57,915 nucleotides of DNA from an uncultured virus (IMG/VR IMGVR_UViG_3300042884_001169) (Duplodnaviria > Heunggongvirae > Uroviricota > Caudoviricetes). The first letter of the stretch is position 1, and each line of letters opens with the position of its first letter. This document shows, piece after piece, positions 11,707 through 45,868 of the stretch. Under the pieces are notes generated by a model, which saw only the letters and a program-made list of their open reading frames with translations, was not told the DNA's origin and did not search any database. The position numbers were made by a program, and so were the translations under genes. The DNA is taken from IMG/VR virus record IMGVR_UViG_3300042884_001169; one strand, written 5' to 3'.

Positions 11707-11710
11707 TCAA

Positions 11711-29146: not shown

Positions 29147-32100
29147 TGATCAAAGCCCCTTGGGGATAAAGAGAATGGGATGTTGCGGTCTTCCAGAAGT
29201 TTAACTAGAGCAAGCGGAACTTCAGATATGTCAGCATACGGAAGAATGACCTTTTCGATGTCCTCAATGTCGACACCTCCATGGATCTGGGCTTCAGTGT
29301 ACTGGTATCCCATCCAGTTTGAATCCCCTATTGATCCAACCCTGAATACCCCACTGTCTAAAATTAACTTTCGAAGCATCGCTTCTTTTCTTGGCGATTG
29401 CCGTCGCATGAGACCCTCCATCGCCAAAATAGAAATCGTTTGATGGCTAGGTGCGCCGCTAAACGACAGCATGTAGACGATGTTCTTGACTCTGTCCAAG
29501 TCGATCTCGTTGTCTTCTGTAAAGTAACCAAGAACAGCACCGATTTCCTCAAGGACTGTTTCGTCTAACGGAACTACTGCACCTCGTGATCCGAAGGAAT
29601 CTCCAATAGTGGCAGTCGTGCGATCCCGAATCTCGCCCCTCAAAATGATCTGATGGTCGCCATAAGGGCGAGACGATTGATTCGGGGGGACGTCTGTCAG
29701 CGGCGTTACTACCAATTCGTCATCTTCGTTCCATCCGAAATCGCGCTGCTGATCTGCAAAGAATCCATAGATGGGACGCAGGGTCTCTGGCAGGTTTTGG
29801 GGGATCCCCATAATACGATTTTCAATATTTTGCCGAAATTCTGGAGCAAACGAGCCTTGACTGTAACCCGTTTCGAACTGACTTTTCACCCTGCCTTCCT
29901 CCAGAACCAACAACAGGGCCTCACTGCCAATTGCGATCCGAATAGGACCGCTTGTGAGCAATTCGATTTCGTCTCGATATGCCTCAACAATTGCATCAGC
30001 GATATCTGCATCGAAATGTTCAGAAAACATTTTTTCGAGCAAATCATATGTCTGGCCGTGCATCATGATGGAGTTGCGGCCCGGACGGGTTATGCGACTC
30101 AGTTCCTCGCGAAATGCTTCAGGGCTAACAATGATTGGCCCAAACATGTCAACTAATTCATCAGCGGCTCTTGGACTGTCAAGGGCCATTGTTTCGCTCA
30201 GTTGATCAAGGAAAGTTTCGATCAGTTTACTTAGGAAGAGTCCACGGACACCCTCCACCTGTGTCGCCATGTACTGCCTCATGCGGTTTTGCATGTCGTC
30301 TGTTTGTACAGAGTACAAACCTGAAACTCCCGGCATGTATCGACGCCGAATGCTTTTACGATCAGGAATAGGTCGATCACGCCGCGCGTCCACCCCAGAA
30401 GGCACCTGTGGTGTCTGCCCTTCAGGCACAGGTGCAAGAGGCGCTGCCGCCGGACGTGCCGTCTGACGCACCGACGACGCTCCAAGTTCCTGCAACGAAG
30501 GCGTACCAACATCAGAAAGAGGCGAACCACGCTTCTTCGGTTTCGCTGCATCCACTTCACTTCCAACAGGCTTCGGCACTTCGCCTTGCTCAGCCGGTTC
30601 CGGCGTCAAACGACCAAGGTCTGCACCAATCGTGCCTTCTTCCGGTTTCGGCATGTACGTTGGGACGTAATTCACTTCGTTTCCGGCTGCATCCCGAATG
30701 ACAAGGTTGTTTGGTCGTGCCGTGATCGACGTGGATTGAATTCTCTGTCCACGAGTTACAGGCTTTCCGTCTATGTAAAGTTTCGTGCCAGCCGGGCGTT
30801 CCCATACAGTCCATTCTTGAACAATCCCATCCCCATCGCCGTCACGGGCATCTGGGTCATAGGGTTCATCGATGAGCGCTGCTCGTCTACTTGCAGCCTT
30901 CGCTTCAATGCGGGGTCCAACAAAAGCCTTTGTGTCGGTTTGTTCAGACGCATTTGGTGTGATGAACTTCCAGCCAACGTCGGTTTCCAAAGGAACCCTG
31001 CCGTCTGCGGTAACCACGGGAATTGAGCGCTCCCTTGCCAGACGCAGGACCTCACGAATGTCCTCTCCGAGAGATTCCGTAGAGTTGGGAAGCACGATTT
31101 CGGCTACATCCTCTAAGGCGACGCCACCGTGAATCTGGGTTTCAACGTACCTAGGGTTTTGGGGTCGGATCATGGCTTGTGCTTCTTCTGAACGGATTCG
31201 TCGGAGCACGCCTCGGCGTAACTCTTCGGGCAGACGGTCAATCCATGCGCGAGCAGCGATGCTTGCCGCAGCCTCATGAAAGTCATCTGAAACGGCGGCA
31301 TGGAGAAGCCCAGTCCGTACGTCCCCTCTAGAGCCGTTGGTGGGGTCAGGGAATGATGCAAGCAATGCTTCACGCGCTGCTTCCGTAAGAGGAACTGCAG
31401 TGCCAACGCTTCCGGTCATAGAGTCACCGAAAGTCGCTGTAGTTCTTGCTCTCACATCGTCTTTAAGACGGAACAGGACAGGACCATGCATTGTTGCTGC
31501 GTCTCGTGTTGGATCTGGATCTAACTGTGAATTGCCAGCGAAGCCAGCATCAGGGGTTCGTGGAATGAACCCGTAGATCGGTCTTCCTCGATCCGCCGTG
31601 TCTCGCGGAACTCCAAGCAATTCCGATTCCACCGAGGCTCTGTCTCTCAACGATTGGGTGAAGCCTTCCGGTTGTGTCTCGAAATGAGTTTGAATTCTTC
31701 CTTCGGCGATGATGGTTGCTGCTGTGGATTCAGTTGCGGGGACATAAATCTGTTTGACGAGTTCCCTGTCGGCATACTCATTCAATGCGTTGTCGATGAG
31801 TTCATTGATGAAGTCATCGTCACGCTCCAGCAGTGGGGTGAGTTTCTCTGCTAGCCATTCCCGCCGCAGCCTTGGGTCGCTAACGTCGACTTCTTCACGG
31901 CCTAAAGCATCACGAATGGCGCTCGACAGGCGCTCCCATTCGAGATCTCCCTCTTCCCCTTTGCCGACATCAGCGAGGAGATCGATGAGTTTCTCCATCA
32001 TCAGTGACTTTGTTGCTGCGCGACTTGTTGCTGCTCTTTCGATTACCGCTTCACCAGTGGCGGGTCCGGGTGTGTAGGGGACTCGTACATCAGGAATTTC

Positions 32101-35100
32101 GGTGTCTTTGGATTCAGACAACGCACGTCGGTATTCGAAAACCTGTTTGTTGTATTCACGCATTGCATCTCTGTGCTTTGCCATGGATACCGCATGTTCC
32201 TGCTTTTGCTTTTCGTATAGATCGGCCATGTATGCGTTATCCAAGACACCGACTTCGGCGCGTTCGTTGTCTACGGCGGAGAGAAGTCCTCGTCGCAGAA
32301 CTTCGTTGGTTGCGTCTACGTCAGCCATTGCGTCATGAGCGCCATCGCCAAGTTCATAACCCAGATAACTCGCCAACGAGCCGAGTGCATGGCTGGTTGG
32401 GCCGGTTTCCTCTCCATCTCCCTTGGGAACAGCCATGCGCATGAGTGCGAGGGTGTCTACCGAGCCTCCCAATTGCAAGGTGCCATCGTTCTCGTCGACG
32501 ATGCGTTGAAGTACCTCTAAATCGAATGGGGCGTTGTGGGCTACAACGATTTGCCCGTTTAATACTGCTGACAGCCGTCCTTGAGCGTCTTCAACGGAAA
32601 TGCCGTTCTCGGCTAACCATTCTTCCGTGAGTGGATTGCCATCACCATCGCGAAGATGTTGACGAGACCATTCAGAAAGTGGTCGGTCGGGGTTAATGAA
32701 CTGATTAATGCGTTGAACGACTTTTCCGTCTTGAACCCGAACCATCGCTACCTGCGTCGGCATGTTGCCGTGATCGAAACCTGTAGTTTCAAAATCCAGA
32801 AGCCAATATCCCTCTTCATCGAGGAGTTCCAAGACTCGTTCAAAATCGCCTTCAGCCCGATCAACGATTTCTGCGGCACGCCCAGAGAACGGCGGGGGCG
32901 CTGGAGTGTAAGGAGCGCGAGGCTTTACAGGCGCAATCAACTCATCTCGGTCCATGGAATCAGCGTTTGTTCCCGGCGACATATCCATGTCTTCAATACT
33001 TGCTGAAGGGATTGGATCAGGCTTAGACCCAGTGAACGTGGACGACGAAGCCGATGCCTGTGCTTTTGGGGCCTGAGGTGTCGCCGAATAATAAACGGTT
33101 TTCTTGCGATTCTCGTCTTCCCAACTAACCGTGAAACCATGTTTCCTCGCTGCCGCAAGAAGCCGCTTTGCATGTGGATTAGCGGAAGCAAGGAAGTCAG
33201 GTGCAAGTGGTCGGCCTTCGTTGTCTCCATCAAACTGGAGTCGAACCGGAAGGACAATTTCTTCAACGTCACTCAAATCTACGCCACCATGGATCTGAGT
33301 TTCGATGTAGTCGAGACTTCGTCCCAACCCTGCTTCGATCTGGCCGGGGTTCCAAATGTCGCTCAAAGAGTCATTGCCCGACAGGTTCTCTTCGATGAAT
33401 CGATCAACGAGCCGTGCCGCCAAAATGTCTTCCGCTGCACCACCGAGCGCTCCGACGATTAAAAGTTCTTGCCCAGAAAGTGCGGCACCCTCCGCATCCA
33501 GTTGTCGAACATGTTCATCTCGCAATTCCTTATCTAGCGGAATCGGATAAAGCCGATGATCTAAAGAGTCACCCAATGAGACTGTGGTCCGTTCGGAAAC
33601 TTCGGGTCGCAACCGAATAAACACTCCGCCCCCACCTGTATAAACCCGCGCCCGATCGCCACTTGCGTCAGGTTCTATCCCGTCATCCTTCATCCGGCTG
33701 GGGATGTAACCGTAAATCGGTCGTTCAAAATCAGCCGCGTCCTCCGGTACGTTCATGTGGTCAAGTTCAAATTCGCTTCTATATTCGGGATTGTAAAGTC
33801 CTTGCGAGGTCCATGTCTCAAACTGGGACTTGATGCGTTCATCACGAATGATTCCGGGTTCAAAAATTACTCCTTGTTCCACATCCTCTTCATTGCCGTC
33901 TTCCCCAAAAAGTGCGTAAAACGGCACCGCGACGTATACGCCTCTTTCATCGTGCAACTCTTGAATGAATTCTTCCGCTTCTTCAAACAACTGCTTGCTT
34001 GCTTCCTGCCACCGTTCAGCGACCGCCGGTTCTGGTGATACCGGAAACACAATCTCGGCGGCATCTCTTAATTTAGAAAAACCCGCGAAACGGGAAGGAA
34101 TACCTAAAGCAGTTGAAATCCGGTCTGCACGATCTTCCTCTTCTGCAATGTTGTCTGCATTAGGCGAACTGAAGGTCCTGAGTCTCCCGATATTCAAAAA
34201 AGCAGTTCGTGCTGCGGACATCACAGACATAAAGCGGCTTGTATAACTCGTTGCGATGGGGCCATCCCCACTTCGGGCCTGCCCTCGCTTCCCCTTTGCG
34301 GCAGTGCGCAAATAATCAGGCACCCGACTTGGCCTGTTCACATTTGGATCGACAGCAACCGAGTCCTCCGCATCACGCTCCGGGCCACGCACCACACCCA
34401 CAGACCGTCCGATAGTCCCAACATCGCTGCGTTCGTAAGACGGCACATAATCGACAGCGTTACCATTCGTATCAACGATCCGGTGACTTCGAGAACGGAA
34501 AGTTGAAATCTGGCCTCTAGCAATCTCTGTGCCAGATGCATCCATAATCCGTGTGCCAGCAGGCCGCTCCCAAGGTGTGCCTTCCTGCACAATGCCATCC
34601 CCATCACCATCGCGGGCGTCTGGATCGTAAGGCTCTTCGATGAGTCGGCGCCGGAAATTCAGAGGGGCTTTGATCTGCAGTGCTTCGTAGAGTCCTTTGG
34701 TTACGACCGCTTCAGGATCACCCGTGGCCGCCTCAATGACCTGCGCTACAGCATCCTCAAGTTCTTCCTGTATCTCATCCGCAACCTTCTGCTTCAAACC
34801 ATCCCAATAGGCGTCAAGTTCATTGATCGCCTCCTGAACTTCCCGCTCAAGCGACTCAACCGTAACCTCAACCCCAGAGTCGCCCATGAGAAGTTTCACG
34901 CCATGCTGGTTTTTCAACTTCTTGACCAACTCAACAGCCTGCTGCTTCGACTTCAACTTGTACAAAGATCCGAAACCAACAAAATCTTTCAGTTCATACG
35001 AACCCTGCTTTTTACGCTCAAGCAAAAACTTGATTTGGCTTTCCGTAAAACCAACAGATTCCAAAAATTCTTGTGAGAAATACTCGTCGATCACTTCTTC

Positions 35101-36681
35101 ATCGACGTTCGGAGTTGCTTCCAACGCATCAAGAGAGTTAATCCTGATCGAATCAACTTCATCCAAGTCGAAACTTCCAGCAATGTTCGCCTCTAAATAG
35201 TCGTGCGTGCTTTCACCAGTACGCCATTCCGTCGCACCAAACCCCGACTGGCTGCTTTGTGTTGTCCCCCGAGTAGACCCGTTACGCTCACTTTCGAGCA
35301 TGTTCAAAATCACAGCAGTCGGATTTTTCTGTCCAGATCCATTAATCAAAACTGACGCAATGTATTCCGGATCATCTTCATCCATACCCACAACACCCGG
35401 TCCCCCATGATTGATGGAATCTCCAAGACTCCACGCAGTTCGATCAAGAACCTCCGGCTTCAAGTCAATCGTAATATCCCCGTAGATGTCGCTAACGCCC
35501 GTAAGTCTTTTCTCCAGTTTTTGGTCTTCACCGCCCGCACCGTCATCAACCAAATCAGCCACTTCCCGAGTAATGAGATAACCGGCTGCAGGACGAACGT
35601 CAACAGGAGCACTTGGTGGAATACCTATTACGCGCGCATCCGTCGTAGTTCGACCAGCAACTCCCGCGTTATCAGTCGCAGTGCCACGATCAAACACCGT
35701 CTTATAGCGTCCATCGCGAATAAACCCTGCGAGTTTGCTCCACGTCATCTTTACGCGAACTCCGCCGCCCTTAACTTCTTCCTGCACCCTACTCGCCTGC
35801 GACAAAAGCATCTGGTTCAGTTCCTGATCAGAACTTTCCAAAACAAGAGTTTTCAACTCATCCGGCATCGCATCGATACTTTTGCGATCCACCTCTCGAA
35901 GTGCGAACTGTCCGTTTGCATCGAACTCGCCCGTTTCCAAATATCGGCGAACCGAGAACAGTGAATTTGCCTGTATCTTGCGTCTGCGCGCGATCGCCTC
36001 CGCTCTCGTCACTGGCACCCCGAGATTCGATTCAGTACCCTCGTCGGCCTCTTTCTGTCGAGCCTCTTTGTACTCATCATCGATACGACCCATCATTGCG
36101 CCCGCCTCGATAAGTTTCTGCTTAATCGAAGCGTTCTTCTTCCGGATCTGCTTCGGAGTCATAGCAGTCAATTCCGATTCAGCCTCCGGCTCCGGCGTCT
36201 CTGCTTCTGGCGCGCGCGGCGTTTCGACTGCAAGGAAATCCAGCACCTCAGGATCAAGCGGTTCAAGATTCAGACCTTCCCGCTCCCGCTGCGCCAGAAG
36301 AGCATCAGGCCTACCAAAAGGAACCCGCTCAGGAGGCGTAACAAGATCACGAATACTCGGCAAACCGCTTTCGCCAATACTTACCGCACCATGCTCACTA
36401 AGAGCAGTACCGCCCGCAGCGCCACCAGCCGTCTCATACGAAGGCGTGTAATCGACCTTATTGCCCTGAGCATCAACAACCCGAACTCCACGAAGTCGCG
36501 TAGCAGAATTCGCCCCAGCCGCAATTGGAGAACCAGCGGAATCCTGCAGGAACGTACCGTCAGGACGCTCCCACGCTGTGCCTTCCTGAATGATCCCATC
36601 GCCATCGGCGTCGCGCGCTTGAGGATCATATGGCTCTAACCGGAGTCCCCCCCAACGCGTGCTTGTGCCAGAAATTGCCAT
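29143..36681 (-). CDS. 2512-aa modular putative virion/ejected protein: 3 leader repeats, 4 DUF3626-like domains, 1 DEDDh 3'-5' exonuclease
   Basis: EPYDPxARDxDGDGIxQE..WERPxGT x3; KSQFET..RPIYG..RTT..GDS..YxExQIHGGV x4 (first copy degenerate); LDFETTG..AHNAPFD..HDAMAD. Confidence 0.85.
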   Translation of the reverse strand: MAISGTSTRWGGLRLEPYDPQARDADGDGIIQEGTAWERPDGTFLQDSAGSPIAAGANSATRLRGVRVVDAQGNKVDYTPSYETAGGAAGGTALSEHGAVSIGESGLPSIRDLVTPPERVPFGRPDALLAQREREGLNLEPLDPEVLDFLAVETPRAPEAETPEPEAESELTAMTPKQIRKKNASIKQKLIEAGAMMGRIDDEYKEARQKEADEGTESNLGVPVTRAEAIARRRKIQANSLFSVRRYLETGEFDANGQFALREVDRKSIDAMPDELKTLVLESSDQELNQMLLSQASRVQEEVKGGGVRVKMTWSKLAGFIRDGRYKTVFDRGTATDNAGVAGRTTTDARVIGIPPSAPVDVRPAAGYLITREVADLVDDGAGGEDQKLEKRLTGVSDIYGDITIDLKPEVLDRTAWSLGDSINHGGPGVVGMDEDDPEYIASVLINGSGQKNPTAVILNMLESERNGSTRGTTQSSQSGFGATEWRTGESTHDYLEANIAGSFDLDEVDSIRINSLDALEATPNVDEEVIDEYFSQEFLESVGFTESQIKFLLERKKQGSYELKDFVGFGSLYKLKSKQQAVELVKKLKNQHGVKLLMGDSGVEVTVESLEREVQEAINELDAYWDGLKQKVADEIQEELEDAVAQVIEAATGDPEAVVTKGLYEALQIKAPLNFRRRLIEEPYDPDARDGDGDGIVQEGTPWERPAGTRIMDASGTEIARGQISTFRSRSHRIVDTNGNAVDYVPSYERSDVGTIGRSVGVVRGPERDAEDSVAVDPNVNRPSRVPDYLRTAAKGKRGQARSGDGPIATSYTSRFMSVMSAARTAFLNIGRLRTFSSPNADNIAEEEDRADRISTALGIPSRFAGFSKLRDAAEIVFPVSPEPAVAERWQEASKQLFEEAEEFIQELHDERGVYVAVPFYALFGEDGNEEDVEQGVIFEPGIIRDERIKSQFETWTSQGLYNPEYRSEFELDHMNVPEDAADFERPIYGYIPSRMKDDGIEPDASGDRARVYTGGGGVFIRLRPEVSERTTVSLGDSLDHRLYPIPLDKELRDEHVRQLDAEGAALSGQELLIVGALGGAAEDILAARLVDRFIEENLSGNDSLSDIWNPGQIEAGLGRSLDYIETQIHGGVDLSDVEEIVLPVRLQFDGDNEGRPLAPDFLASANPHAKRLLAAARKHGFTVSWEDENRKKTVYYSATPQAPKAQASASSSTFTGSKPDPIPSASIEDMDMSPGTNADSMDRDELIAPVKPRAPYTPAPPPFSGRAAEIVDRAEGDFERVLELLDEEGYWLLDFETTGFDHGNMPTQVAMVRVQDGKVVQRINQFINPDRPLSEWSRQHLRDGDGNPLTEEWLAENGISVEDAQGRLSAVLNGQIVVAHNAPFDLEVLQRIVDENDGTLQLGGSVDTLALMRMAVPKGDGEETGPTSHALGSLASYLGYELGDGAHDAMADVDATNEVLRRGLLSAVDNERAEVGVLDNAYMADLYEKQKQEHAVSMAKHRDAMREYNKQVFEYRRALSESKDTEIPDVRVPYTPGPATGEAVIERAATSRAATKSLMMEKLIDLLADVGKGEEGDLEWERLSSAIRDALGREEVDVSDPRLRREWLAEKLTPLLERDDDFINELIDNALNEYADRELVKQIYVPATESTAATIIAEGRIQTHFETQPEGFTQSLRDRASVESELLGVPRDTADRGRPIYGFIPRTPDAGFAGNSQLDPDPTRDAATMHGPVLFRLKDDVRARTTATFGDSMTGSVGTAVPLTEAAREALLASFPDPTNGSRGDVRTGLLHAAVSDDFHEAAASIAARAWIDRLPEELRRGVLRRIRSEEAQAMIRPQNPRYVETQIHGGVALEDVAEIVLPNSTESLGEDIREVLRLARERSIPVVTADGRVPLETDVGWKFITPNASEQTDTKAFVGPRIEAKAASRRAALIDEPYDPDARDGDGDGIVQEWTVWERPAGTKLYIDGKPVTRGQRIQSTSITARPNNLVIRDAAGNEVNYVPTYMPKPEEGTIGADLGRLTPEPAEQGEVPKPVGSEVDAAKPKKRGSPLSDVGTPSLQELGASSVRQTARPAAAPLAPVPEGQTPQVPSGVDARRDRPIPDRKSIRRRYMPGVSGLYSVQTDDMQNRMRQYMATQVEGVRGLFLSKLIETFLDQLSETMALDSPRAADELVDMFGPIIVSPEAFREELSRITRPGRNSIMMHGQTYDLLEKMFSEHFDADIADAIVEAYRDEIELLTSGPIRIAIGSEALLLVLEEGRVKSQFETGYSQGSFAPEFRQNIENRIMGIPQNLPETLRPIYGFFADQQRDFGWNEDDELVVTPLTDVPPNQSSRPYGDHQIILRGEIRDRTTATIGDSFGSRGAVVPLDETVLEEIGAVLGYFTEDNEIDLDRVKNIVYMLSFSGAPSHQTISILAMEGLMRRQSPRKEAMLRKLILDSGVFRVGSIGDSNWMGYQYTEAQIHGGVDIEDIEKVILPYADISEVPLALVKLLEDRNIPFSLSPRGFDQ

Positions 36682-37048
36682 ATCTTGAGATTACTGTATT
36701 CGTGGCTTTAATGTTTCAGGTAAACAGTCCCGCTGGGAAAAATCCACCCGGGGCTGCGAAATGCTTTGGTATTTAGTTTGTTACGGTGTCGATTTCGCGC
36801 GGGTTATCCACAGGTTTTTGTCCGTGCTGTGGAAAACGTTATCCACAGGGCTGTCCACAGGCTGTGGAACGTGGATCGAACACTTGTTCGTGTGACGGGG
36901 GTCACTGGTGGGGGTGGGGGTCGGGTGGGTGTGACGGGTGTCACGGGTGGGGCGTGTGACATATTTCACGGTGGAATCCGGTGCAGTCCGGTGCTGGACC
37001 CTATAAGGTGCAGTCATGACATCGAACGGCGGAGAGGGGGTGAATGAA

Positions 37049-37255
37049 ATGAACGAAATGACAGAGTATGAACTACTCAAGATGACGCGTGAGTTGTTTG
37101 CGAACAAGGGCGCTCAGTTTGGGCGTGCGGTCAGCAACCAAGGGTACGACGTCTTCACTGCTCATGATCTGGCGAGGTTGTTTTGCCCGCTTGATCCAGA
37201 CGAGGCAGACGCGTTTCTCTACGGGGTGACGCAGGCGTATCTCGCTAGGGCCTAG
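37049..37255 (+). CDS. cassette 1 micro-protein (68 aa; alternative leaderless start at 37016)
   Basis: GGAGAGGGGGTGA RBS; hairpin follows. Confidence 0.75.
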   Translation: MNEMTEYELLKMTRELFANKGAQFGRAVSNQGYDVFTAHDLARLFCPLDPDEADAFLYGVTQAYLARA

Positions 37256-37726
37256 CCCAAGGGGTGGCCCCCGGTTCGCCGGGGGTCATCCTCTCCCGAT
37301 CTGTTGTCCACATCCCCCCTGTGGATAACTTGAGGCCCTCCCCGTTCCGCCGCGGGGAGGGCCTCCCCCTTTGCGAAACAGCCCCGCTGGAGGGTTTGGT
37401 CTATTTTTTTTACGGTGGCGATTTCGTTTTTGTTGGGGGGGGGTATTTAGTCCCGCCTGCACCTGTTGGTGCCGGGGCTGCGAAGGCTGCGATGCGTTTT
37501 CCGCTCCGGGGCTGTCCGCGGTTATCCACAGGCTTGCGCGGGTCGTTGGTTGTCCACAGGTTTGTTCATGCCCTGTGGATTGTTGGTTCGAACGATTGTT
37601 CGGTGACGGGTGTCACGTTTGGGGGGGGTTGAGGGTGTGACAGGATTCACACGGCTGCAGGTTGTAGGTGTCAATTGTTTCTGGTAGTTTCGGTGCATGA
37701 TCACGAACGGCGGAAAGGGGGTGAAC

Positions 37727-37900
37727 ATGGAAAATCTTCAGAAGTGTTCCGAGTGCGGCGACAGCGTTGCCACATTGTGGAATCGCGGTCGTTGTTGGGA
37801 CTGTCACGACGCCTCGTGCGCGTACAGCCTCAACGGTGATTCGGCCCCTGATGCGTTCGATCCCGCTTATGCGGGTGAGCGTTGGGATGACGATTACTGA
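37727..37900 (+). CDS. cassette 2 micro-protein (57 aa, CxxC..CxxC, acidic tail)
   Basis: GGGGGTGA RBS; CSEC and CWDC. Confidence 0.75.
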   Translation: MENLQKCSECGDSVATLWNRGRCWDCHDASCAYSLNGDSAPDAFDPAYAGERWDDDY

Positions 37901-37911
37901 TCGGCTCCGCG

Positions 37912-37968
37912 CTACTGACTAGGATTCGGCGCCGCCGGGGGCGTGGCAACAGCACCCCGGCACCACCA
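37912..37968 (+). ncRNA. candidate structured RNA element, copy 1
   Basis: 57-nt element repeated at 39282-39338 with a compensatory pair change and a GCAA tetraloop. Confidence 0.4.
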
Positions 37969-38470
37969 TTCTCGCGACCCCCTGTGATCCGCCGCACGGG
38001 GGGTCGCGTGCATCCCCGGCGCGTGTCGCGCGCGGGCCGACCCCGGGGCTGTCAGGCGCTTTGGTCTATTTTTTCTTACGGTGGCGATTTCGGCAAGGAT
38101 TTCGAGGCGAAAGTCCCGCTGGAGGTTTGCGCGTTGCGGGGCTGTCGGGAAGTTATCCACAGCGGCCTGTGGATAAGGTTGTCCACAGGTTTTTGCACAG
38201 GGTGTGGATAAGTTATCCACAGGCGGGTGGTGTGACGGTTGTCACATTCGAACGTCTGTTCGTGTGACGGTGGTCACATGTGACGGGTGTCACTTTCGAA
38301 CATGTGTTCGTGTGACGGGTGTCACATTCGAACGGGTGTTCGGTGACGTTTGTCACAAAGTGTTTGTGTGTCGAATGTCACATGTGCCTCTTGTCACAAG
38401 AGGTTGGTTTTTGACCTTAGGCCCTATAGGGTACTGGTATGACATCGAACGGCGGAAAGGGGGTGACAGA

Positions 38471-38668
38471 ATGGAAACTATCGAAGTAGTCGACTGCAAG
38501 GTCGAGGTCGAGGACATCGAGGGTCGGCCTACCTATCGGGCGTACCTACCCGATGGCGAATGGTTCGCAACCTACGTCGAGGGCGTAATCCCGCCCCCGG
38601 GCTACCCGTCCGGGCGTTGGTCCTCGCCTGAGCAATTCATCGCATGGATCAAGTGGGCTAGGTCCTAA
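38471..38668 (+). CDS. cassette 3 micro-protein (65 aa)
   Basis: GGGGGTGA RBS; hairpin follows. Confidence 0.75.
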   Translation: METIEVVDCKVEVEDIEGRPTYRAYLPDGEWFATYVEGVIPPPGYPSGRWSSPEQFIAWIKWARS

Positions 38669-39122
38669 CATCGAGCGTCCCCCGGGGTCCGCCCCCCGGG
38701 GGTTCGCTTCGGGCCATCGAGGGGACCCGCCCCCCTCGATGGCCCACTCCCCAGTCCCGCTGGGATCTGTCTCTATTTATCCTACGGTGGCGATTTCGCA
38801 ATTTATTGGTCGAACAGATCAGTCCCGCCTTCGCCTTTCGGCTCCGGGGCTGCTGCGAAAGTTATCCACAAGCGGGTGGGGATAACTTTATCCACAAGTT
38901 CATCCACAGGGTGTGGAAAACTTATCCACAGGTTATCCACAGGCTGTGGACAACCGCTCGAACACGCGTTCGGTGACCTCGGTCACACTGCGAATCGAAC
39001 AAGTGTTCGTGTGACGCGCGTCACGTTTGGGGCCGCAACCCGTGTGACGGAATTCACAGTGGAATTCGTCCTTGACCCCGGTAGGGTACAACTATGAACG
39101 ACAACGGCGGAGGGAGGTGAAC

Positions 39123-39272
39123 ATGGCAGGAACATGGCAGGATCACGTCGACTGGGAATCAGTCGAACGGACCGGGCGCCTCGAAGAAGAGGACGTTTGG
39201 CAGGCGATCGCCGATTCCGAGGACCTCGACTACAACGAGATCGCGGACGGTGATCTCGCTGAATGGTTGTGA
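39123..39272 (+). CDS. cassette 4 acidic micro-protein (49 aa)
   Basis: GGAGGTGA RBS; 16 D/E versus 2 R. Confidence 0.75.
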   Translation: MAGTWQDHVDWESVERTGRLEEEDVWQAIADSEDLDYNEIADGDLAEWL

Positions 39273-39281
39273 TCCATTCCA

Positions 39282-39338
39282 CTACCGACTGAGCGTCGGC
39301 GTCGCCGGGAACGTGGCAACAGAATCCCGGCACCGCCA
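39282..39338 (+). ncRNA. candidate structured RNA element, copy 2
   Basis: second copy of 37912-37968. Confidence 0.4.
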
Positions 39339-39874
39339 AGTACGCGGCACCCGTTAGCGCCCGCCACGGGTGCCGCCCTAGCGAGGCCCCCTCGATCCGC
39401 CGCGAGGGGGCCTTCGCTTCACCTTGTTCTTTCGGCGATTGAGAAGGACAGCCCCGGCCCCGTTCTGGGTCTATTTATCATACGGTGGCGATTTCGCGTT
39501 TGTTAGCCCCGCCCCAGTCTGTCGACTGCGGGGCTGGTGGCGAGTTATCCACAGGCGGTTGTGGATAAGGTTTTCCACAGGTTTGTCCCCATGCTGTGGA
39601 TAAGTTGTCCACAGGTTTTCCACACCTTGTGGATAACTACGTCGAACAGGTGTTCGGTGACGTCGGTCACAGGTCGAACAAGTGTTCGGTGACATTCGTC
39701 ACAGGTGGATCGAACGTGTGTTCGTGTGACGTCGGTCACATTGTCCATCGAACAGGTGTTCTGTGACGGGCGTCACACTTTCGGGCCGCAACCGATGTGA
39801 CAAGAGTCACGGTGGAATTAGGTTGTGACCCCGGTAGGGTGTACCTAACAACGACAGGCGGAGAGGAGGGAACA

Positions 39875-40078
39875 ATGACTACAGCACTCTTTCACGGAGG
39901 GACGAAGTGGTCGGCACAGACCGAACGCGACGAAGACCTTGCACTAGGTTTCGGCGTGGTTTGGACCGTGTTCGACGAGAACAACGTCCGGGTCGGCGGA
40001 TTCGTCGGCAACGAAGAGGACGCCCTGAAGGTTCTTCGGACACAGAACTACGGGGAACCGCTTCGGATCACGGTTTGA
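39875..40078 (+). CDS. cassette 5 micro-protein (67 aa)
   Basis: GAGGAGG RBS; hairpin at 40084-40108. Confidence 0.75.
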   Translation: MTTALFHGGTKWSAQTERDEDLALGFGVVWTVFDENNVRVGGFVGNEEDALKVLRTQNYGEPLRITV

Positions 40079-40586
40079 TCCACGGCCCCCCGGTTCGTCC
40101 GGGGGGCCACCCTCGATCTTCTCCCCCGGGATTCCGCCCCCGGGGGGGCGCTCCCCGCAAGGGTTGAGCGAACGATGACCCCCGGGATTCCGCCCCCGGG
40201 GGTCATCGCCCTTTCCGGGTGCGCGCCTCGCTTGAGGAGAACAGCGGGACTGTCGTGTTGTTCTATTTATTCTACGGTGGCGATTTCGACTGATTAGCCC
40301 CGCCGTCGCCTGACGGCTCCGGGGCTGGCGCGCGTTTTCCACAGGTTTATCCACAGGTTGGGGAAAAGTTATCCACAGGTGAGGTCGAGTCCTGTGGATA
40401 AAGTTATCCACACCTTTTTCCACAGGCTGTGGGTAACTTGTCCACAGGTTTTCCACAGGCGGGGTCGAGTGTGACCGGCGTCACAGTTTGGGGCCGGTTC
40501 GGCGTGTGACAAGAGTCACGGTGGAACTAGGTTGTGTCCCCGGTAGCCTGTAAGGCATAAGGAACTACGGCGGAAGGAGGTGCCAA

Positions 40587-40760
40587 ATGAAGCCCTACGA
40601 ACACGACGAGTACTACGAAGAGGAAGAGATCGAAGAGGATCACGAATCCGGTAAGTACGAGATGGAGATGTACTACTGGGAGGATCACGACTACCGCGAC
40701 CCGCGGACGGCCGCTAATGATCCCGACCAGTACGAAGATGATCCATTCGATGAATGGTGA
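40587..40760 (+). CDS. cassette 6 extremely acidic micro-protein (57 aa; not in the ORF track)
   Basis: AAGGAGGT RBS; MKPYEHDEYYEEEEIEEDHES..DDPFDEW; 24 D/E. Confidence 0.8.
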   Translation: MKPYEHDEYYEEEEIEEDHESGKYEMEMYYWEDHDYRDPRTAANDPDQYEDDPFDEW

Positions 40761-40836
40761 CACCTAGCCCTAGCGCCCCCCCCACGGGGGGGGCGCTTAG
40801 GCCCCCACCCGCTACACTCCCCGGAAAGGAGAAACC

Positions 40837-40959
40837 GTGAACTCTCAAAGTGTCGAATCAATCCACAACTTGCTCTGCTACCAAGCCGAAATGAAGGCTA
40901 AGCGTGAGCAGGAAGAGCAAGAACAACAGGACGACGAAAGTCAGCCCGACGACGAGTGA
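40837..40959 (+). CDS. 40-aa acidic peptide (not in the ORF track)
   Basis: AAAGGAG RBS, GTG start; ..EQEEQEQQDDESQPDDE. Confidence 0.6.
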   Translation: MNSQSVESIHNLLCYQAEMKAKREQEEQEQQDDESQPDDE

Positions 40960-41267
40960 CGAAAGTCACAGTCGCTCGACCTGAGGCTCCCCCGATCCGC
41001 CGCGGGGGAGCCTCACCCCACGGGGAACCCCACCCACCCCTAGTTCTAATAACCCTACGGTGTCGATTTCGGCTCGACCGACGACAGCCCCGCTGCCGCT
41101 GCACTCCTACTTCCAGTTTCGCGAACAGTTCGATAGCCCCGCCGTCGCCTAACGGCTCCGGGGCTGACACGCGTTTTCCACAAAGAGGTGTGGGCGCCGG
41201 GGCTGTCCCAAGAGTTATCCACAGGGGTGTGGATAAGTAGGTCCCCGGCGAACCGGGGACCCTCTCC

Positions 41268-41501
41268 TTACGAGTAATACCCGAACGTGCCATTCACGAC
41301 CGTTCGCAAGTCCTTCACGGTGTACCACTGGTTTTCGTTCATGAGAACGTAGTGGTCGTCCGCTGCACCTGCACCCCAGCCGGGGTATCGGGTGGCGAGT
41401 GAACTGGAGCGGTGGACGTATTCCGTGGCCGCTTCGATGAGCGAGTCGAAGTGTCGGGTGATCCACCCGTACTTTTCTCCGCCGTAGACGGTGTATCTCA
41501 T
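41268..41501 (-). CDS. hypothetical protein, paralog of 41653-41913
   Basis: own promoter GTGGAA-N17-TAGGGT and CCTACTAC leader. Confidence 0.75.
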   Translation of the reverse strand: MRYTVYGGEKYGWITRHFDSLIEAATEYVHRSSSLATRYPGWGAGAADDHYVLMNENQWYTVKDLRTVVNGTFGYYS

Positions 41502-41652
41502 AGTGACCCTTTCGGGGTAGTAGGTGATGGTTACACCCTACAGGGGGCAGTCGCGTTTTCCACCGTGACATTTTTCACACTCGGCGAGGTTGGTATTCAC
41601 CCTTACCGCCTATAGGGTGCAGTTATCCAATAGAGATCGAAGGGAGGCAACA

Positions 41653-41913
41653 ATGACCGAATACAACGTATGGGGTGGATACTCCTACGCAGTAGGCACC
41701 GAAGAGTTCGACACTCTTCTCGACGCCGCTGAGCAGTATGTCCGCAGGTGCGCGCCCGCGCTTTACTTTTACCCGCTATGGGGCGAAGTGGGACCCGACG
41801 ACTACGTCATCACGACGGAGCACGAAGGGTGGACACTTTCCGACCTGCAGGCAATGATCGACCTCGCCAATAACGAGGTTCGCTCGATTAGCCCGCTAGG
41901 CGTCCGGTCCTAA
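41653..41913 (+). CDS. hypothetical protein, paralog of 41268-41501
   Basis: GGAGG RBS; shared YxVxGG..FDxL..AA..YVxR..YPxWG motif. Confidence 0.75.
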   Translation: MTEYNVWGGYSYAVGTEEFDTLLDAAEQYVRRCAPALYFYPLWGEVGPDDYVITTEHEGWTLSDLQAMIDLANNEVRSISPLGVRS

Positions 41914-41964
41914 CCTAACCCGGCCCCCCGGTTCGCCGGGGGGCCACTACCCGAAAGGCTCACA

Positions 41965-42363
41965 ATGAGCGACACGTTCGTAGTTATCGAACCAACCGGC
42001 TACGCGTTGGTCACCGACACCGGCACCGACACGCTAGCCACCCTGCAGTTACTCGTAGACGGACTTGTAGAGTGCGTCACCCCTAACCCTAAGGTTCTCG
42101 GCTTCACCGCCGACGTATGGGTGAACGAAGAGGGCCTCTACCGGTCGGACTTTTCGATCAATCTGCTGGCCAGTTATCTGACCGGCCGACAGTTGGTCGG
42201 CCCTGCAGTTCTCGCCCGCTCGACTAGCCACGGGCGAACCGTGGGGCTAACAGAACGGCACCTAGAACGACTCACGGCTGACAGTCTCTTTCTCGACTAC
42301 AACGACGGGAAGAACTGGACCGCCGAAGAAGTAGTGGCACGGCGAGAGGAGGTGGAGGGCTGA
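41965..42363 (+). CDS. DUF3846-like protein
   Basis: LQLLVDGLVECV, WVNEEG, NLLAS, LVGPAVL. Confidence 0.7.
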   Translation: MSDTFVVIEPTGYALVTDTGTDTLATLQLLVDGLVECVTPNPKVLGFTADVWVNEEGLYRSDFSINLLASYLTGRQLVGPAVLARSTSHGRTVGLTERHLERLTADSLFLDYNDGKNWTAEEVVARREEVEG

Positions 42364-42737
42364 CCGGCCCTTCACCCCTCGGGGACCCCCCCTATTGCTG
42401 TAATAACCTTACGGTATCGATTTCGCCCCCTCGCTCTGGTTGGGGAGGCAGTCCCGCAGCCTTTCGGCTGGTTAGTCCCGCCCCCAATCTTCCCCCTAAC
42501 TTTTAGCCCCTTTCAGGTTGTTAGCCCCGGCCCCCAGTTTGCGCTGCGGGGCTGTTGGCGTTTGTGCGGGTCTGCGGGGCTGGCGCGCGCGCGAGGTTAT
42601 CCACAGGTTTATCCACAGGCGGAATGGGGGTGAGTTATCCACAGGCTGGGGATAAGTGTGTGTGACAGATGTCACGGTGGAATCTGGCGCTGACCCCTGT
42701 ACGCTGCAGTTACCTACTACCTAACCGGAGGATTCCG

Positions 42738-43253
42738 ATGGTCACCCAAGCAACCGACAAACAGGTCGCGTATCTGCTATCCCTATGGGAAGCAATCGCT
42801 CACCCCGCCCACGAGGTCGAAGCGGTCCGCAACGGCACCCTCACGCTCGGCAGGCGTGAAGCCTCAGACCTTATCGAAGAGGCCAAGACCCGCAAGACCC
42901 TCACCCGTCGCGCCACAGCGGCCCCCGCGGTCACACAGGGTCTCTACATCACAGGCGACGCTCAGTCGGCGAAGGTCCACAAGGTCGTCCTGTCCGCCCG
43001 TGGCAACCTGTACGCCAAGACCCTCACCCCCGGTGGCGGTCGTGGACGCTGGGAATACGCGCCGGGTATCGTGAACACTCTCACCCCCGAAGATGCCCTG
43101 ACCCCTGCAAAGGCTGCCGAGTACGGCAAGACCCAACGCGAAGGCTGGGACGGCTCGATCCTTGTGTACTGCGCCTGTTGTGGTGCCGAACTAGACAACG
43201 AGGAATCGCGAGATCGCGGCATCGGCCCGGTCTGTTTCCGCAAGTACTTCTGA
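42738..43253 (+). CDS. DUF6011-like zinc-ribbon protein
   Basis: ATDKQ N-terminus; CACCGAEL..SRDRGIGPVC. Confidence 0.75.
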   Translation: MVTQATDKQVAYLLSLWEAIAHPAHEVEAVRNGTLTLGRREASDLIEEAKTRKTLTRRATAAPAVTQGLYITGDAQSAKVHKVVLSARGNLYAKTLTPGGGRGRWEYAPGIVNTLTPEDALTPAKAAEYGKTQREGWDGSILVYCACCGAELDNEESRDRGIGPVCFRKYF

Positions 43254-43268
43254 CCTTCGGCTAGATCG

Positions 43269-43299
43269 AAACAGCCCCCCCTAGTGGGGGGTTGTTTTC
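43269..43299 (+). terminator. intrinsic terminator
   Basis: AAACAGCCCCCC-TAGT-GGGGGGTTGTTTT. Confidence 0.75.
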
Positions 43300-43402
43300 G
43301 TTGTGTCGCAAGTCACGAGAATAATCCACAGGCGAGGTTGTGTCCTGTGGAAAACCCCGGTAGCCTGCTACCTACACCTACTAGCACCTGAAAGGAGGAA
43401 AA

Positions 43403-43678
43403 GTGAAAACTGACCTCAGCATTTACAACGATCGAACCGGCAGCATGACCGTGGACACCCTAACGTTCACGGTTCGCGTACTGGAGGCTCGAAACCGATA
43501 CGGCCACCTCGACTTCCGCGTCACCCCAATCTCAGGAGACGGTGAACGATGGGTCGAACAGCACCGGGTCGCCCTGCAACCGGAACTAACTACCACTACG
43601 GTAGAGATTTCGGACACTCTCATTCATGAGATCAAGGCTCCCGCGAACGCCCGCGTTATGTCATTGGATCATTTCTGA
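43403..43678 (+). CDS. hypothetical protein
   Basis: AAAGGAGG RBS; promoter -10 TAGCCT at 43361. Confidence 0.75.
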   Translation: MKTDLSIYNDRTGSMTVDTLTFTVRVLEARNRYGHLDFRVTPISGDGERWVEQHRVALQPELTTTTVEISDTLIHEIKAPANARVMSLDHF

Positions 43679-43703
43679 CCTGATCCCCCGTACCAGCCGG
43701 GGG

Positions 43704-43940
43704 TCAGAACAGACTGTCCTGATCTAACGATGGACGCAACTTTTTGTAATCCATGCAAGTGTTGCACAGAAGACCCGGCTCCGGTTCGGGGAACGCGATG
43801 TGGTTCGCTCCGCCGGACTTGCGGTTCTGCACCCAACCGTTCACGCGGCGCCAGACGCCCGGCTGATCGGGTCGCAACGCACAGCCACAGATGTCACAGA
43901 CGTATAACGGCGGTAGCCCCGCCCGATTCGTTTCACTCAT
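43704..43940 (-). CDS. CxxC..CxxC zinc-finger protein
   Basis: CDIC and CNTC. Confidence 0.6.
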   Translation of the reverse strand: MSETNRAGLPPLYVCDICGCALRPDQPGVWRRVNGWVQNRKSGGANHIAFPEPEPGLLCNTCMDYKKLRPSLDQDSLF

Positions 43941-44073
43941 GCAGACACTTTACAGGCTGATAGTCCCGCCGCCTCACTTCGTTCGGCGGGGCTGCCGCGG
44001 CTGTGATGTCATGATGTCATGATGCGGGTGGACGCGAAAGGCCCCCGCCGTAGCGGGGGCCGGTTCGTTCGGG

Positions 44074-44196
44074 TCAGGCTTCGCAGTCGTGACCGTAGGC
44101 GACTTCGCAGTCGCAAAGTTTCTGCTCGCATTCTTCGCATCGCTCAAAGTCAGCGAACCCGTCGCAATCTTCGTTAGTTGGGTGCTTAGATGCCAT
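44074..44196 (-). CDS. 40-aa Cys-rich acidic peptide (not in the ORF track)
   Basis: TGATG coupling to the upstream gene; MASKHPTNEDCDG..CEEC..CDC..HDCEA. Confidence 0.6.
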   Translation of the reverse strand: MASKHPTNEDCDGFADFERCEECEQKLCDCEVAYGHDCEA

Positions 44197-44474
44197 CAGT
44201 CGTCCGCCTCGTTCCAACTGTCAATGATGGCGTGGAGTCGATAGTTTTCGACGATGGCCCACGCTGGGGCGCTTGTGTCGCCCTTGTACAGAACACCTTC
44301 GGGAAGGTCGATGTACTGATTGCCTTCTTCGCAGAATGCGTGGTCGATTGCTTGGACGCAGATGGGGATCATCACGTCGGGGACGGGTGGGTAACAGTTT
44401 GCTTTCAGATGCCACGAAACTGCTGTTTCGATGTTGGTCTCTGACGCAAGGTCGAAGAGGTTGTTGTATCCCAT
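44196..44474 (-). CDS. hypothetical protein
   Basis: promoter GTGGAA-N17-TAAGGT, CCTACTAC leader, AAAGGA RBS. Confidence 0.75.
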   Translation of the reverse strand: MGYNNLFDLASETNIETAVSWHLKANCYPPVPDVMIPICVQAIDHAFCEEGNQYIDLPEGVLYKGDTSAPAWAIVENYRLHAIIDSWNEADD

Positions 44475-44629
44475 TCGGTTCCTTTCGGTAGTAGGTGACT
44501 TACAAGGTACACCTTACCGGGGTCAGGACCGTTTTCCACCGTGACACTTGTCACAAGGTGTGGAGGTTGGTATTCGCTGCTGTCCCCTATAGAGTGTTGG
44601 TCACTACCCCTACTACGGAAAGGTCGCTC

Positions 44630-44926
44630 ATGAATGGCGACATCAGGATTGTGAAGATCACCCCTACAGGTGACATCTACAAGCACCCTGCCCGTTACTC
44701 GGCAGGAAACGAATGGACATTCCCCATCGAATACACGTTGGAAGATGGCCGCGTATTCTCATCACGATCGACGCACAAGCGTCTGAAAGATGCGAAGGCT
44801 GAACTAGCAACACTTCCTTGCGAGCCACGGAATCACACCACGGCAATCTTCCATGATGACAAGTTTGCTGGCGTGACGATCCACTACGGCATGATTACCG
44901 CGTGGCCCGTCGCAACGCTCGGCTGA
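44630..44926 (+). CDS. hypothetical protein
   Basis: promoter TTGGTA-N17-TAGAGT, CCTACTAC leader. Confidence 0.7.
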   Translation: MNGDIRIVKITPTGDIYKHPARYSAGNEWTFPIEYTLEDGRVFSSRSTHKRLKDAKAELATLPCEPRNHTTAIFHDDKFAGVTIHYGMITAWPVATLG

Positions 44927-45005
44927 ATCTGTACAGGGGGGTTGTGATTCTCGCGACCCCCCTGTATGCTGTCTCTATACACCTACTACCCGTAAGGAGA
45001 TTCCC

Positions 45006-45209
45006 GTGACCGTACTTATCTGTCACCCCGGAACCGGCACGATTATCGACGCAAGCGAATGCTACGTCCTGACTGTCTACGATGATGACATCGACACCGA
45101 AACCATCGAATCAGCGATGGACAGTTTCTATCAGATGGTCTCGCCCGAAGGTACTCACTTAGAGACCCTCGAAGGCGTTCTCGATCCATCACTCAGAAAG
45201 AGAATGTGA
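45006..45209 (+). CDS. hypothetical acidic protein
   Basis: promoter TTGTGA-N17-TATGCT, AAGGAG RBS. Confidence 0.7.
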   Translation: MTVLICHPGTGTIIDASECYVLTVYDDDIDTETIESAMDSFYQMVSPEGTHLETLEGVLDPSLRKRM

Positions 45210-45439
45210 CTATGCACCCCGTCCAATACCACTACATCGTGTGGGCAGAGGTCCATGACGGCAAAACCGTTTGGAACGTGGACATCGAAGGCGATGGCCT
45301 ACTGTTCGATGGACCTGTCTACGACCCGAACGCCACGCTAGGCGACGAATGGCGCACCCTCAACGAAGACGAGCAAGGCCTCGACAATCGGCTCTACGCC
45401 GAACTACGGGATCGACTGAAGATCGGGGAGGGGGACTGA
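45206..45439 (+). CDS. hypothetical acidic protein
   Basis: GTGA overlap. Confidence 0.7.
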   Translation: MTMHPVQYHYIVWAEVHDGKTVWNVDIEGDGLLFDGPVYDPNATLGDEWRTLNEDEQGLDNRLYAELRDRLKIGEGD

Positions 45440-45682
45440 CCCCCTCAACCCGGCAGGAGAGCCTTGCCAGTCTCTAATAACCTTACGGTGTCGATTTCGG
45501 CTGACTCTAACTACAGAAGAGAACAGTCCCGCTGCCGCTGGCAGCAAAGTCATTAGCGGTAAGAAGATGAAAGTCCCGCCGCTTCGCTTCGCTCAGCGGG
45601 GCTGGCGCCGCGCGTTATGCACAGGCTGTGGATAACCGGTGCGGGGCCTCCCGCTCGCGTGGGGGTGGGTGGTGACCCGCCG

Positions 45683-45868
45683 TTAGGCGGGCCACGCTTC
45701 CCTCGGTCGGAGTCCGTCGCCGAACACTTGTTCGAGTGCTTCTTCTGTTCCGCAGTCGGAGCAAATCTCTGTCCGGTTGTCGGTGCGTGAGAGCGCGCCG
45801 GGGTAGTGGCCGGGGGTCCATGCGTTTGGAATGGGTCCGAGGCATCGGGGGCAGATTGGGGTGGTCAT
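45683..45868 (-). CDS. small zinc-finger protein (CPRC..ALSRTDN..ICSDC)
   Basis: GGAGG RBS, ATGA overlap. Confidence 0.75.
   Translation of the reverse strand: MTTPICPRCLGPIPNAWTPGHYPGALSRTDNRTEICSDCGTEEALEQVFGDGLRPREAWPA

Follow-up and report, generated by a model that had tools for sequence, protein, structure and literature searches.

A repeated phage cassette with abutting LexA-type and CRP-type boxes, DnaA-box blocks and promoters possibly driven by host CRP

Introduction

Phage takeover of the host cell is usually credited to proteins. The host-takeover module of SPO1, for example, is a string of strong early promoters in the terminal repeat, each with one or a few small genes of unknown family, and we know of no tiles of host-protein sites in it. 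DnaA-box clusters of Streptomyces and Bacillus act as chromosomal DnaA sinks, and no phage counterpart of these was found in the literature searched. Here, we examined the full 57,915-nt stretch IMGVR_UViG_3300042884_001169 of an uncultured virus (hereafter the window), together with a further 62 kb fetched for the same phage. The window carries an array of repeated cassettes, in which DnaA boxes and palindromes of the LexA and CRP types are packed upstream of promoters of small genes.

The promoter-early stem-loops (PeSLs) of phages RB49 and phi1 (PMC2839356) are comparable in that a strong host-type promoter, stem-loops and a Shine-Dalgarno sequence are repeated between genes ahead of small ORFans, and they are likely recombination units; the available parts of that paper report no host-regulator sites and do not mention DnaA, whereas the present array has DnaA, LexA and CRP blocks and weak -35 elements. 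The injection-stop region of T5 (bioRxiv 10.1101/866236), non-coding DNA set among the pre-early genes, likewise has clusters of perfect DnaA boxes, paired at a distance of 3 bp. However, T5 has 7-8 boxes in two inverted modules within the terminal repeat, as against 47 boxes in ten modules accompanied by LexA and CRP tiles here, and neither LexA nor CRP is mentioned in the available parts of the preprint. CRP-dependent promoters of classes I-III (PMC4117774, PMC2844151, PMC3445967; available in part) share with the array a TGTGA-N6-TCACA-type box in helical phase, a second site about three turns upstream and boxes common to divergent genes, but the positions inferred here are -43.5, -53.5 and -63.5 rather than the -61.5 of E. 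coli, and -53.5 is not among the mycobacterial positions given in those parts. In GIL01 (PMC4551915, in part), host LexA boxes also lie in phage early control DNA as two closely set sites; those boxes follow the P1 start and, together with gp7, maintain lysogeny, whereas the 11 boxes here precede the inferred starts by 91-197 bp and the ORFs scanned include no lysogeny gene. E. coli datA (PMC10218098, in part) is a host homeostasis locus where DnaA boxes clustered outside the origin lower active DnaA. A literature search that covered few subscription papers found none that describes phage DNA acting as a decoy for DnaA or LexA, nor any on a LexA-CRP composite. By analogy, the cassette may work like a T4-type PeSL, and its DnaA blocks resemble the T5 injection-stop array, with a site density that appears extreme.

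The reading that we prefer, at a probability of about 0.42, is that early promoters driven by host CRP are combined with an upstream landing pad that titrates host proteins or coats phage DNA.

LexA-type boxes are abutted by CRP-type boxes

The actinobacterial LexA (SOS) palindrome TCGAAC-N4-GTTCGA and the CRP/GlxR consensus TGTGA-N6-TCACA were used as criteria. Perfect CGAAC-N4-GTTCG occurs 11 times in the window against 0.20 expected, ten of these lying in 36877-39724, and one extra box with one mismatch is found at 39749. GTGA-N6-TCAC occurs 28 times against 1.33 expected, 21 times in the tighter form GTGAC-N4-GTCAC. The original prediction, made from the window alone, was that each LexA box is directly abutted by a CRP-type box, and this was borne out: all 11 LexA-type boxes in 36877-39762 are followed by GTGA-N6-TCAC at a centre distance of 14 bp (six) or 15 bp (five), while no composite appeared in 500 dinucleotide shuffles of 36761-40600. 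All 11 start with TCGAAC, and their final base, T or G, is common to the CRP box. Among the 26 GTGA-N6-TCAC sites at 36.7-47.1 kb, T precedes in 16 and A follows in 15, and 21 different N4 spacers are present; 17 of the 28 GTGA boxes have no abutting LexA box.

The densest tile (38232-38356) does contain five CRP-type (C) and three LexA (L) boxes with gaps of 0-3 nt, as had been predicted for 38231-38358, but their order is C-L-C-C-L-C-L-C, not a strict alternation. Four tandem L+C pairs were also found where expected, at 39643-39776 and 4-9 nt apart, with the one-mismatch LexA box in the fourth pair. The centre spacing of 14-17 bp sets neighbouring boxes 120-220 degrees apart on the helix. 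Many of the boxes were further said to lie well upstream of the core promoter, and indeed LexA centres fall at about -91 to -197 from the inferred starts, none on a core promoter. Repression by LexA would place its box over the core promoter or the start, and assignment to the LexA-repressed promoter class was rejected because the LexA positions fail this overlap test. Finally, the perfect LexA box reported inside a gene at 45721 (45721-45734) is present within a 61-amino-acid CxxC open reading frame (ORF) on the minus strand (45868-45683) and carries little weight; it may be a chance occurrence, since it has no CRP neighbour and two further perfect LexA boxes lie within genes in the 62 kb outside the window.

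The boxes belong to one repeated cassette

All boxes belong to one type of repeated cassette, and the array reaches about 47 kb. The cassette starts with an S motif (15 bp, TACGGT-NN-CGATTTC), after which come a hairpin of 30-32 nt, two to nine DnaA boxes forming a block, from none to four LexA-CRP units, a further CRP-type box and a promoter ending in TAnnnT. A ribosome-binding site and a small ORF come next, and terminator-like hairpins close the cassette. The recurring TAnnnT pattern served to identify the promoters, which appear to be of the sigma-A type; a sigma-70 scan gave two promoter-like sites against 3.3 by chance. DnaA, LexA and CRP sites occupy 59-77% of the bases in the four densest blocks. 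The features are as follows (positions after CRP boxes in brackets are centres relative to inferred starts).

36782-37255 (+), cassette 1: S motif at 36782, DnaA boxes 36804-36847, LexA-CRP unit 36877-36905, CRP boxes at 36931 and 36956 (about -53.5), -10 at 37004, small ORF about 37049-37255 without PHROG or Pfam family
37304-37328, head-to-head DnaA-box pair between terminator-like hairpins, with no adjoining promoter
37411-37900 (+), cassette 2: S motif at 37411, hairpin 37449-37479, DnaA boxes 37522-37558, LexA-CRP unit 37589-37616, CRP box at 37637 (about -53.5), promoter TTGTAG-17-TAGTTT, ORF 37727-37900
38077-38668 (+), cassette 3: S motif, hairpin 38112-38143, five DnaA boxes 38153-38221, tile C-L-C-C-L-C-L-C 38232-38356, two imperfect CRP boxes at 38368 and 38384, -10 at 38427, ORF 38471-38668
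38783-39272 (+), cassette 4: S motif, hairpin 38821-38851, eight DnaA boxes 38862-38953, two LexA-CRP units 38959-39024, CRP box at 39044 (about -43.5), promoter GTGGAA-17-TAGGGT, ORF 39123-39272
39481-40078 (+), cassette 5: S motif, hairpin 39505-39535, seven DnaA boxes 39545-39636, four LexA-CRP units 39643-39776, CRP box at 39797 (about -43.5), promoter GTGGAA-17-TAGGGT, ORF 39875-40078 without Atlas family
40273-40760 (+), cassette 6: S motif, hairpin 40296-40326, nine DnaA boxes 40335-40457 replacing the LexA units, CRP boxes at 40471 and 40506 (about -78.5 and -43.5), ORF 40587-40760
41056-41236 (+), promoterless module: S motif, hairpin and three DnaA boxes, facing the end of a convergent gene
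41501-41653, divergent promoter pair with one common CRP box at 41565 (about -43.5 for the minus ORF, -53.5 for the plus ORF)
42410-43253 (+), DUF6011 cassette: S motif, hairpins, four DnaA boxes 42597-42655, CRP box at 42662 (about -43.5), ORF 42738-43253
44474-44630, divergent promoter pair with one common CRP box at 44541 (about -43.5 and -54.5)
45484-45734 (+), operon-end module: S motif, hairpin 45572-45603, two DnaA boxes 45615-45635 at a convergent operon end, lone LexA box 45721-45734
46077-46207, divergent promoter pair with one common imperfect CRP box, the minus -10 being read by eye
46969-47049 (+), last CRP box (about -43.5) with promoter GTGGAA-17-TAGAGT, ahead of an AAA ATPase operon

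As in a PeSL, a repeated promoter and stem-loop thus flank small ORFans: the six small ORFs of cassettes 1-6 match no Pfam family and gave one weak PHROG match of unknown function, and both small cassette ORFs tried in the Atlas gave no usable match. The number of LexA-CRP units varies from 0 to 4 per homologous cassette, and in cassette 6 their slot is filled by DnaA boxes.

Two IMG/VR contigs match the stretch at 100% and 99.9%, joining at 38737-38742 and both breaking inside the array, and the array stretch is covered in all 30 bins by contigs from four of four further lake runs; the stretch is therefore real DNA. Joints between DnaA blocks in the run contigs have sides of 20-36 nt and may come from other organisms. 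The contig breaks and the homology of the cassettes (mean column identity 50%) agree with a passive expansion, whereby slippage and recombination among cassettes would have copied a single useful LexA-CRP unit and a small number of DnaA boxes many times over, the extra copies being nearly functionless; T4-type PeSLs do recombine and shuffle small ORFs (PMC2839356, in part). Nevertheless, the palindrome arms were kept while N4 spacers and flanks diverged, as the spacer diversity of the CRP boxes indicates, and a variant contig changes three N4-spacer bases and deletes one base of a LexA-CRP joint (a single contig of depth 3.4, possibly an error). We consider expansion of this passive kind quite unlikely.

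DnaA boxes form ten blocks

A layer absent from the original prediction consists of DnaA boxes, scored with the consensus TT(A/T)TNCACA (bioRxiv 10.1101/866236, in part). The perfect box TTATCCACA occurs 27 times in the window against 0.32 expected, 26 times within 36.8-45.7 kb, and a scan allowing one mismatch gave 47 boxes, grouped into ten modules. Every one of the 28 CRP boxes and 47 DnaA boxes lies at 36.8-52 kb, while the 62 kb outside the window has no CRP box and two relaxed DnaA boxes. Three modules (37304-37328, 41174-41236 and 45615-45635) have no downstream promoter.

Close DnaA neighbours are 10-12 bp apart in 22 of 34 steps, similar to the 3-bp pairs of T5, and among the matches listed are gut phages of ~15 kb, with collar and polymerase genes like those of phi29, in which one or two pairs of a DnaA and a LexA box separated by 1 nt lie 47-350 bp from both genome ends. 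Both observations would fit a role of the blocks in DNA handling, as an origin assisted by host DnaA or as a membrane or injection anchor, with LexA and CRP as architectural partners. This role appears very unlikely here, because the boxes are dispersed over ten blocks instead of forming a single-locus origin, G+C content is 56-62% with no A+T-rich unwinding stretch seen at the blocks (1-kb windows and inspection by eye), an initiator-like protein, a helicase loader and a primase-helicase are encoded by the phage itself, nothing here points to a genome end, and the T5 model is itself in silico only (bioRxiv 10.1101/866236, in part). On the same grounds of dispersal and base composition, assignment as a DnaA-dependent origin was rejected.

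The CRP box nearest the promoter has the phasing of an activator site

At 15 of 17 chosen ORF starts, a CRP box with at most one mismatch lies 31.5 bp (eight), 41.5-42.5 bp (five) or 51.5-52.5 bp (two) before the -10 element; of the other two starts, one has no box and one has no -10 within the range of the script. With the -10 element set at -12, these boxes are centred at -43.5, -53.5 and -63.5. The -35 place is GTGGAA in all eight -43.5 promoters and mostly a TTG-type hexamer in the others. One box is common to both promoters in the three divergent pairs, and the proximal box has no LexA neighbour in 16 of 16 promoters. The E. coli activator position of -41.5 is not among these centres.

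Because the cassettes of this phage are paralogs, other viruses were used as an independent test. GTGAC-N4-GTCAC and TTGACA lie no more than 30 nt apart in at least 96 viral clusters; 24 of these carry a -10 element, and the gap is exactly 11 nt, equivalent to -53.5, in 11 of the 24. Across the clusters, GTGAC-N4-GTCAC stands exactly 11 nt ahead of TTGACA in 15 of 96 among the matches listed, a widespread -53.5 geometry. Mycobacterial CRP sites cluster between -60 and -40, and upstream binding activates (PMC4117774, PMC2844151, PMC3445967, in part). The phased position and the same -53.5 peak in unrelated phages make the proximal box most likely an activator site and not a drain, and we consider it quite probable that a host CRP-family protein activates from it. 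The predicted draining of CRP is accordingly weak, also because mycobacterial CRP is in several-fold excess over its sites (same papers).

A second CRP box lies 33-35 bp upstream of the proximal one in cassettes 2, 4, 5 and 6, and in cassettes 2, 4 and 5 it is the CRP half of the last composite, near the 32 bp at which tandem E. coli CRP sites synergize (PMC4117774, PMC2844151, PMC3445967, in part). This arrangement speaks for a logic gate in cis, weighed below with the composites of other phages.

The boxes resemble sites of host proteins

The sequence of the box at 39642 is identical in every letter to the recA SOS box of M. tuberculosis given in PMC8607333 (available in part). We then considered a metagenome sample of loci with both motifs (at least 120 loci in 79 clusters), where the LexA-CRP spacer peaks at 28-29 nt among the matches listed. 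These include host-type promoters, with the GTGAC box 28.5-30.5 bp before TAnnnT in 30 of 35 such matches listed and the LexA box over the start. Downstream of them, DUF222 genes (six matches in 66 frames scanned) and c-di-AMP riboswitches (nine of 13 host-type loci picked by eye) were found. Targets of LexA and CRP typically include elements of these two kinds. The gene rpfA is a CRP target (PMC4117774, PMC2844151, PMC3445967, in part). One large metagenome cluster lies ahead of a ferredoxin gene and may not be actinobacterial. Some host-type leaders combine three inputs, a LexA box covering the start being preceded by a CRP-type box at about -41 and followed by a c-di-AMP riboswitch. This layout reads as ordinary activation by CRP and repression by LexA, and the phage does not use it. 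Judged by sequence, the LexA and CRP identities proposed for the motifs are well supported by the recA box and by the host-type promoters that carry both.

The abutting pair recurs in unrelated phages

Both motifs occur within 30 nt of each other in 34 viral lineages, and in ten of these, this one included, the spacer is 0 or 1. Of 53 lineage-spacer events, 11 have a spacer of 0-1, where 2 in 31 would be expected (p 5e-4); by subtraction of this phage, the figure is 9 of 45. LexA-LexA pairs peak at spacers of 1-2, with 0-2 in 24 of 122 among the matches listed (p 6e-4, bins picked afterwards), and thus show the same centre packing of 15-16 bp. DnaA-LexA spacers, in contrast, are flat over 46 clusters, and close abutment was rejected as a rule for that pair. 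Across 185,579 genomes, the composite gave 12 matches, 11 of them in Actinomycetota, beside unrelated genes, and a shared host regulon behind it was therefore rejected. In one Kitasatospora genome, the composite, at 1501-1529 of locus L207, begins 3 nt after the stop of a CRP-family gene.

In single composites of other phages, a promoter lies on the CRP side in 5 of 12 (gaps of 11, 11, 21, 33 and 47) and on the LexA side in none of 12, which supports regulation in cis there. The original prediction had offered a competitive gate for DNA damage and cyclic AMP (cAMP) as one of its two explanations. In such a gate, LexA beside the upstream CRP site would block or tune activation, so that full firing needs active CRP and cleaved LexA, with DnaA as a cell-cycle input and copy number grading the response. 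The constant promoter-distal place of LexA, the CRP-side promoters, and the use of both motifs as activator and repressor in host-type promoters are consistent with it. Up to four units reaching -197, however, exceed what a gate needs; no LexA box touches a core promoter, and the proximal CRP box, free of LexA neighbours, would suffice. LexA-LexA pairs use equal spacing, mycobacterial CRP binds without cAMP and, in the parts of the sources available, responds only about twofold to it, and among the ORFs scanned no integrase or repressor suggests a lysis-lysogeny decision. We hold the gate to be possible, not favoured, and on balance unlikely.

Reading of the composite or the GTGAC palindrome by a phage-encoded protein, in place of host LexA and CRP, would agree with the tighter GTGAC-N4-GTCAC consensus, with the 2-bp offset from host-type spacing and with the WhiB and helix-turn-helix proteins that the phage encodes. 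It is highly improbable, for both motifs occur in host-type promoters, the composite occurs in unrelated phages and 11 actinobacterial genomes, and one box equals a bound mycobacterial SOS box. A single protein reading the whole composite is unlikely because each half occurs alone (most GTGA boxes lack a LexA box) and the spacing varies by 1 bp.

Among relatives by capsid, 28 of at least 60 kb were compared (from 80 loci kept of 481; mostly fragments, two at least 90% complete). At least five perfect DnaA boxes are clustered in 6 of 28 and tandem LexA boxes occur in 4 of 28, while strict GTGAC-N4-GTCAC was found in none of the 28 and in one of five relatives by ATPase. A hairpin-DnaA-promoter grammar is common to some capsid relatives. 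DnaA and LexA blocks thus appear to be a family trait, and the CRP layer and its tiling appear lineage-specific, given the absence of the strict CRP box from all 28. One relative has 18 relaxed DnaA boxes in ~300 bp (locus L494, 1284-1768). Against cultured phages, blastn of the array gave four short matches only, and the composite was not found: a short consensus query matched Streptomyces phages, of which the two examined, Zemlya and Gilson, have a CRP-type box but no LexA box. A gene-free stretch of at least 1.4 kb, situated ~7 kb from the right end, contains a cluster of DnaA boxes together with a single CRP-type box in the Streptomyces phages SparkleGoddess (locus L001, 7000-7450) and Gilson (locus L742, 700-1210).

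Probable early promoters with a proposed upstream landing pad

From the sites, their order, phasing and recurrence, we infer binding, activation, co-occupancy, timing, and titration or coating as follows. The small-gene, probably early region would have been built through duplication of one expression cassette with two layers. In the first, host CRP would activate sigma-A-type promoters from one in-phase site, often together with a second one 33-35 bp upstream, the -43.5 site being paired with the poor -35 element GTGGAA and the -53.5 or -63.5 site with a TTG-type -35. In the second, closest packing would let DnaA, LexA and CRP occupy adjoining positions on different helix faces. This upstream block would act mostly apart from the promoter, gathering host DnaA and LexA (and CRP) on phage DNA; titration would mean fewer host initiations and de-repression of SOS, rising as phage DNA is copied. 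Alternatively or in addition, the block may coat newly entered phage DNA.

A role of the block apart from the promoter is suggested because LexA is never nearer than about -91, the proximal CRP box lacks a LexA neighbour and the number of units ranges from 0 to 4, and likewise because cassette 6 substitutes DnaA boxes and three DnaA modules have no promoter. Co-occupancy is preferred over a competitive gate since LexA-LexA pairs pack equally tightly and the abutting pair recurs in nine other lineages; the abutting spacing would then be the closest packing that permits both proteins to bind. The sites exceed local need and are partly uncoupled from promoters, which makes a decoy role plausible, mainly for LexA and DnaA. 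A stronger version, in which the non-coding tiles act as a sponge or armour, loading host DnaA, LexA and CRP and so halting host replication starts and de-repressing SOS without any phage protein, with the same CRP driving early genes from -53.5 or -43.5, seems to us doubtful.

Several points weigh against the landing-pad reading. The cassettes are paralogs, and counts within the window are thus not independent. Tight packing is not general, as the flat DnaA-LexA spacers indicate; the strict CRP box is scarce among relatives; and composites with CRP-side promoters favour cis regulation in their own phages. Host-type promoters have the box 28.5-30.5 bp before the -10 element versus 31.5 or 41.5 bp here. 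In the available part of the M. tuberculosis CRP table (table S3), sites span -43.5 to -64.5, with -43.5 twice and -54.5 to -59.5 often, and -53.5 is missing. Co-occupancy calls for caution, as simultaneous binding at two near-overlapping LexA sites was doubted for GIL01 (PMC4551915, in part). As for titration, CRP excess over its sites argues against it, LexA autoregulates, and one phage copy adds only 11 LexA boxes before replication. Depth over the array, taken from contigs only, is not doubled, so that neither a terminal repeat nor first entry of this DNA is supported; the phage records are fragments classed "linear".

If the tiles act in trans, DNA would by itself accomplish the takeover, and a testable meaning would emerge for the unexplained DnaA-box array of T5. 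The locus would be an unusually clean test case: its sites are perfect, they fall on short fragments, and one cassette type comes naturally with 0 to 4 LexA-CRP units. Even without a decoy, LexA-CRP abutment and the -53.5 CRP position in unrelated actinophages point to a promoter geometry not found in print.

The carrier phage and other elements

The window encodes capsid, WhiB, Rpf-like transglycosylase, endolysin and primase-helicase genes, and sheath, tube, terminase and portal genes lie beyond it in the further 62 kb. The closest cultured capsids are those of Brevibacterium and Gordonia phages (45-47%), and the phage sequence occurs in lake metagenomes, with no RNA dataset among those listed. 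Its structural genes, capsid relatives and lake sources identify the carrier as a myovirus of Actinomycetota, found in lakes and with a genome of at least 120 kb. It appears to be lytic; no integrase, LexA or CRP homolog was found in 111 ORFs scanned (59 chosen in the window and 52 of at least 90 amino acids outside). The small-gene region is probably early in infection, because host-type promoters precede small ORFans. Rfam and ARAGORN found two tRNAs only in the window, neither in the array.

The S motif is asymmetric, lies on the plus strand only and mostly 7-8 nt after TCTA, and occurs at 36782, 37411, 38077, 38783, 39481, 40273, 41056, 42410, 43597, 45484, 49901, 54021 and 56062. It is absent from the 62 kb outside the window and from ten regions of relatives, and a scan that found it at 50 loci showed it in multiple copies in this phage only. 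It could be a site for a phage protein or a promoter of a short RNA; a PafBC-type promoter was rejected for it by eye on spacing. GlnR/MtrA direct repeats (11-bp period) were rejected in the same way. The hairpin, AG(T/C)CCCG-N16-18-CGGGGCT, precedes each DnaA block in ten copies (36726-45603), and its half-sites are frequent in relatives. Its position 3 is T in six and C in four copies opposite a fixed G, with no compensatory change, as expected of a stem formed by the single-stranded plus strand.

Bordering the array, 29143-36681 (minus strand) encodes a 2512-amino-acid protein with a DUF3626 domain, a DnaQ-like exonuclease domain and internal repeats. Near the capsid gene, 1686-4034 encodes a PI3/4-kinase or HipA-like protein (under Pfam cut-offs) and 11633-12583 a protein of the histone-deacetylase family. 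In 41517-51913, most later cassettes have CTACTAC-rich leaders between the -10 element and the ribosome-binding site.

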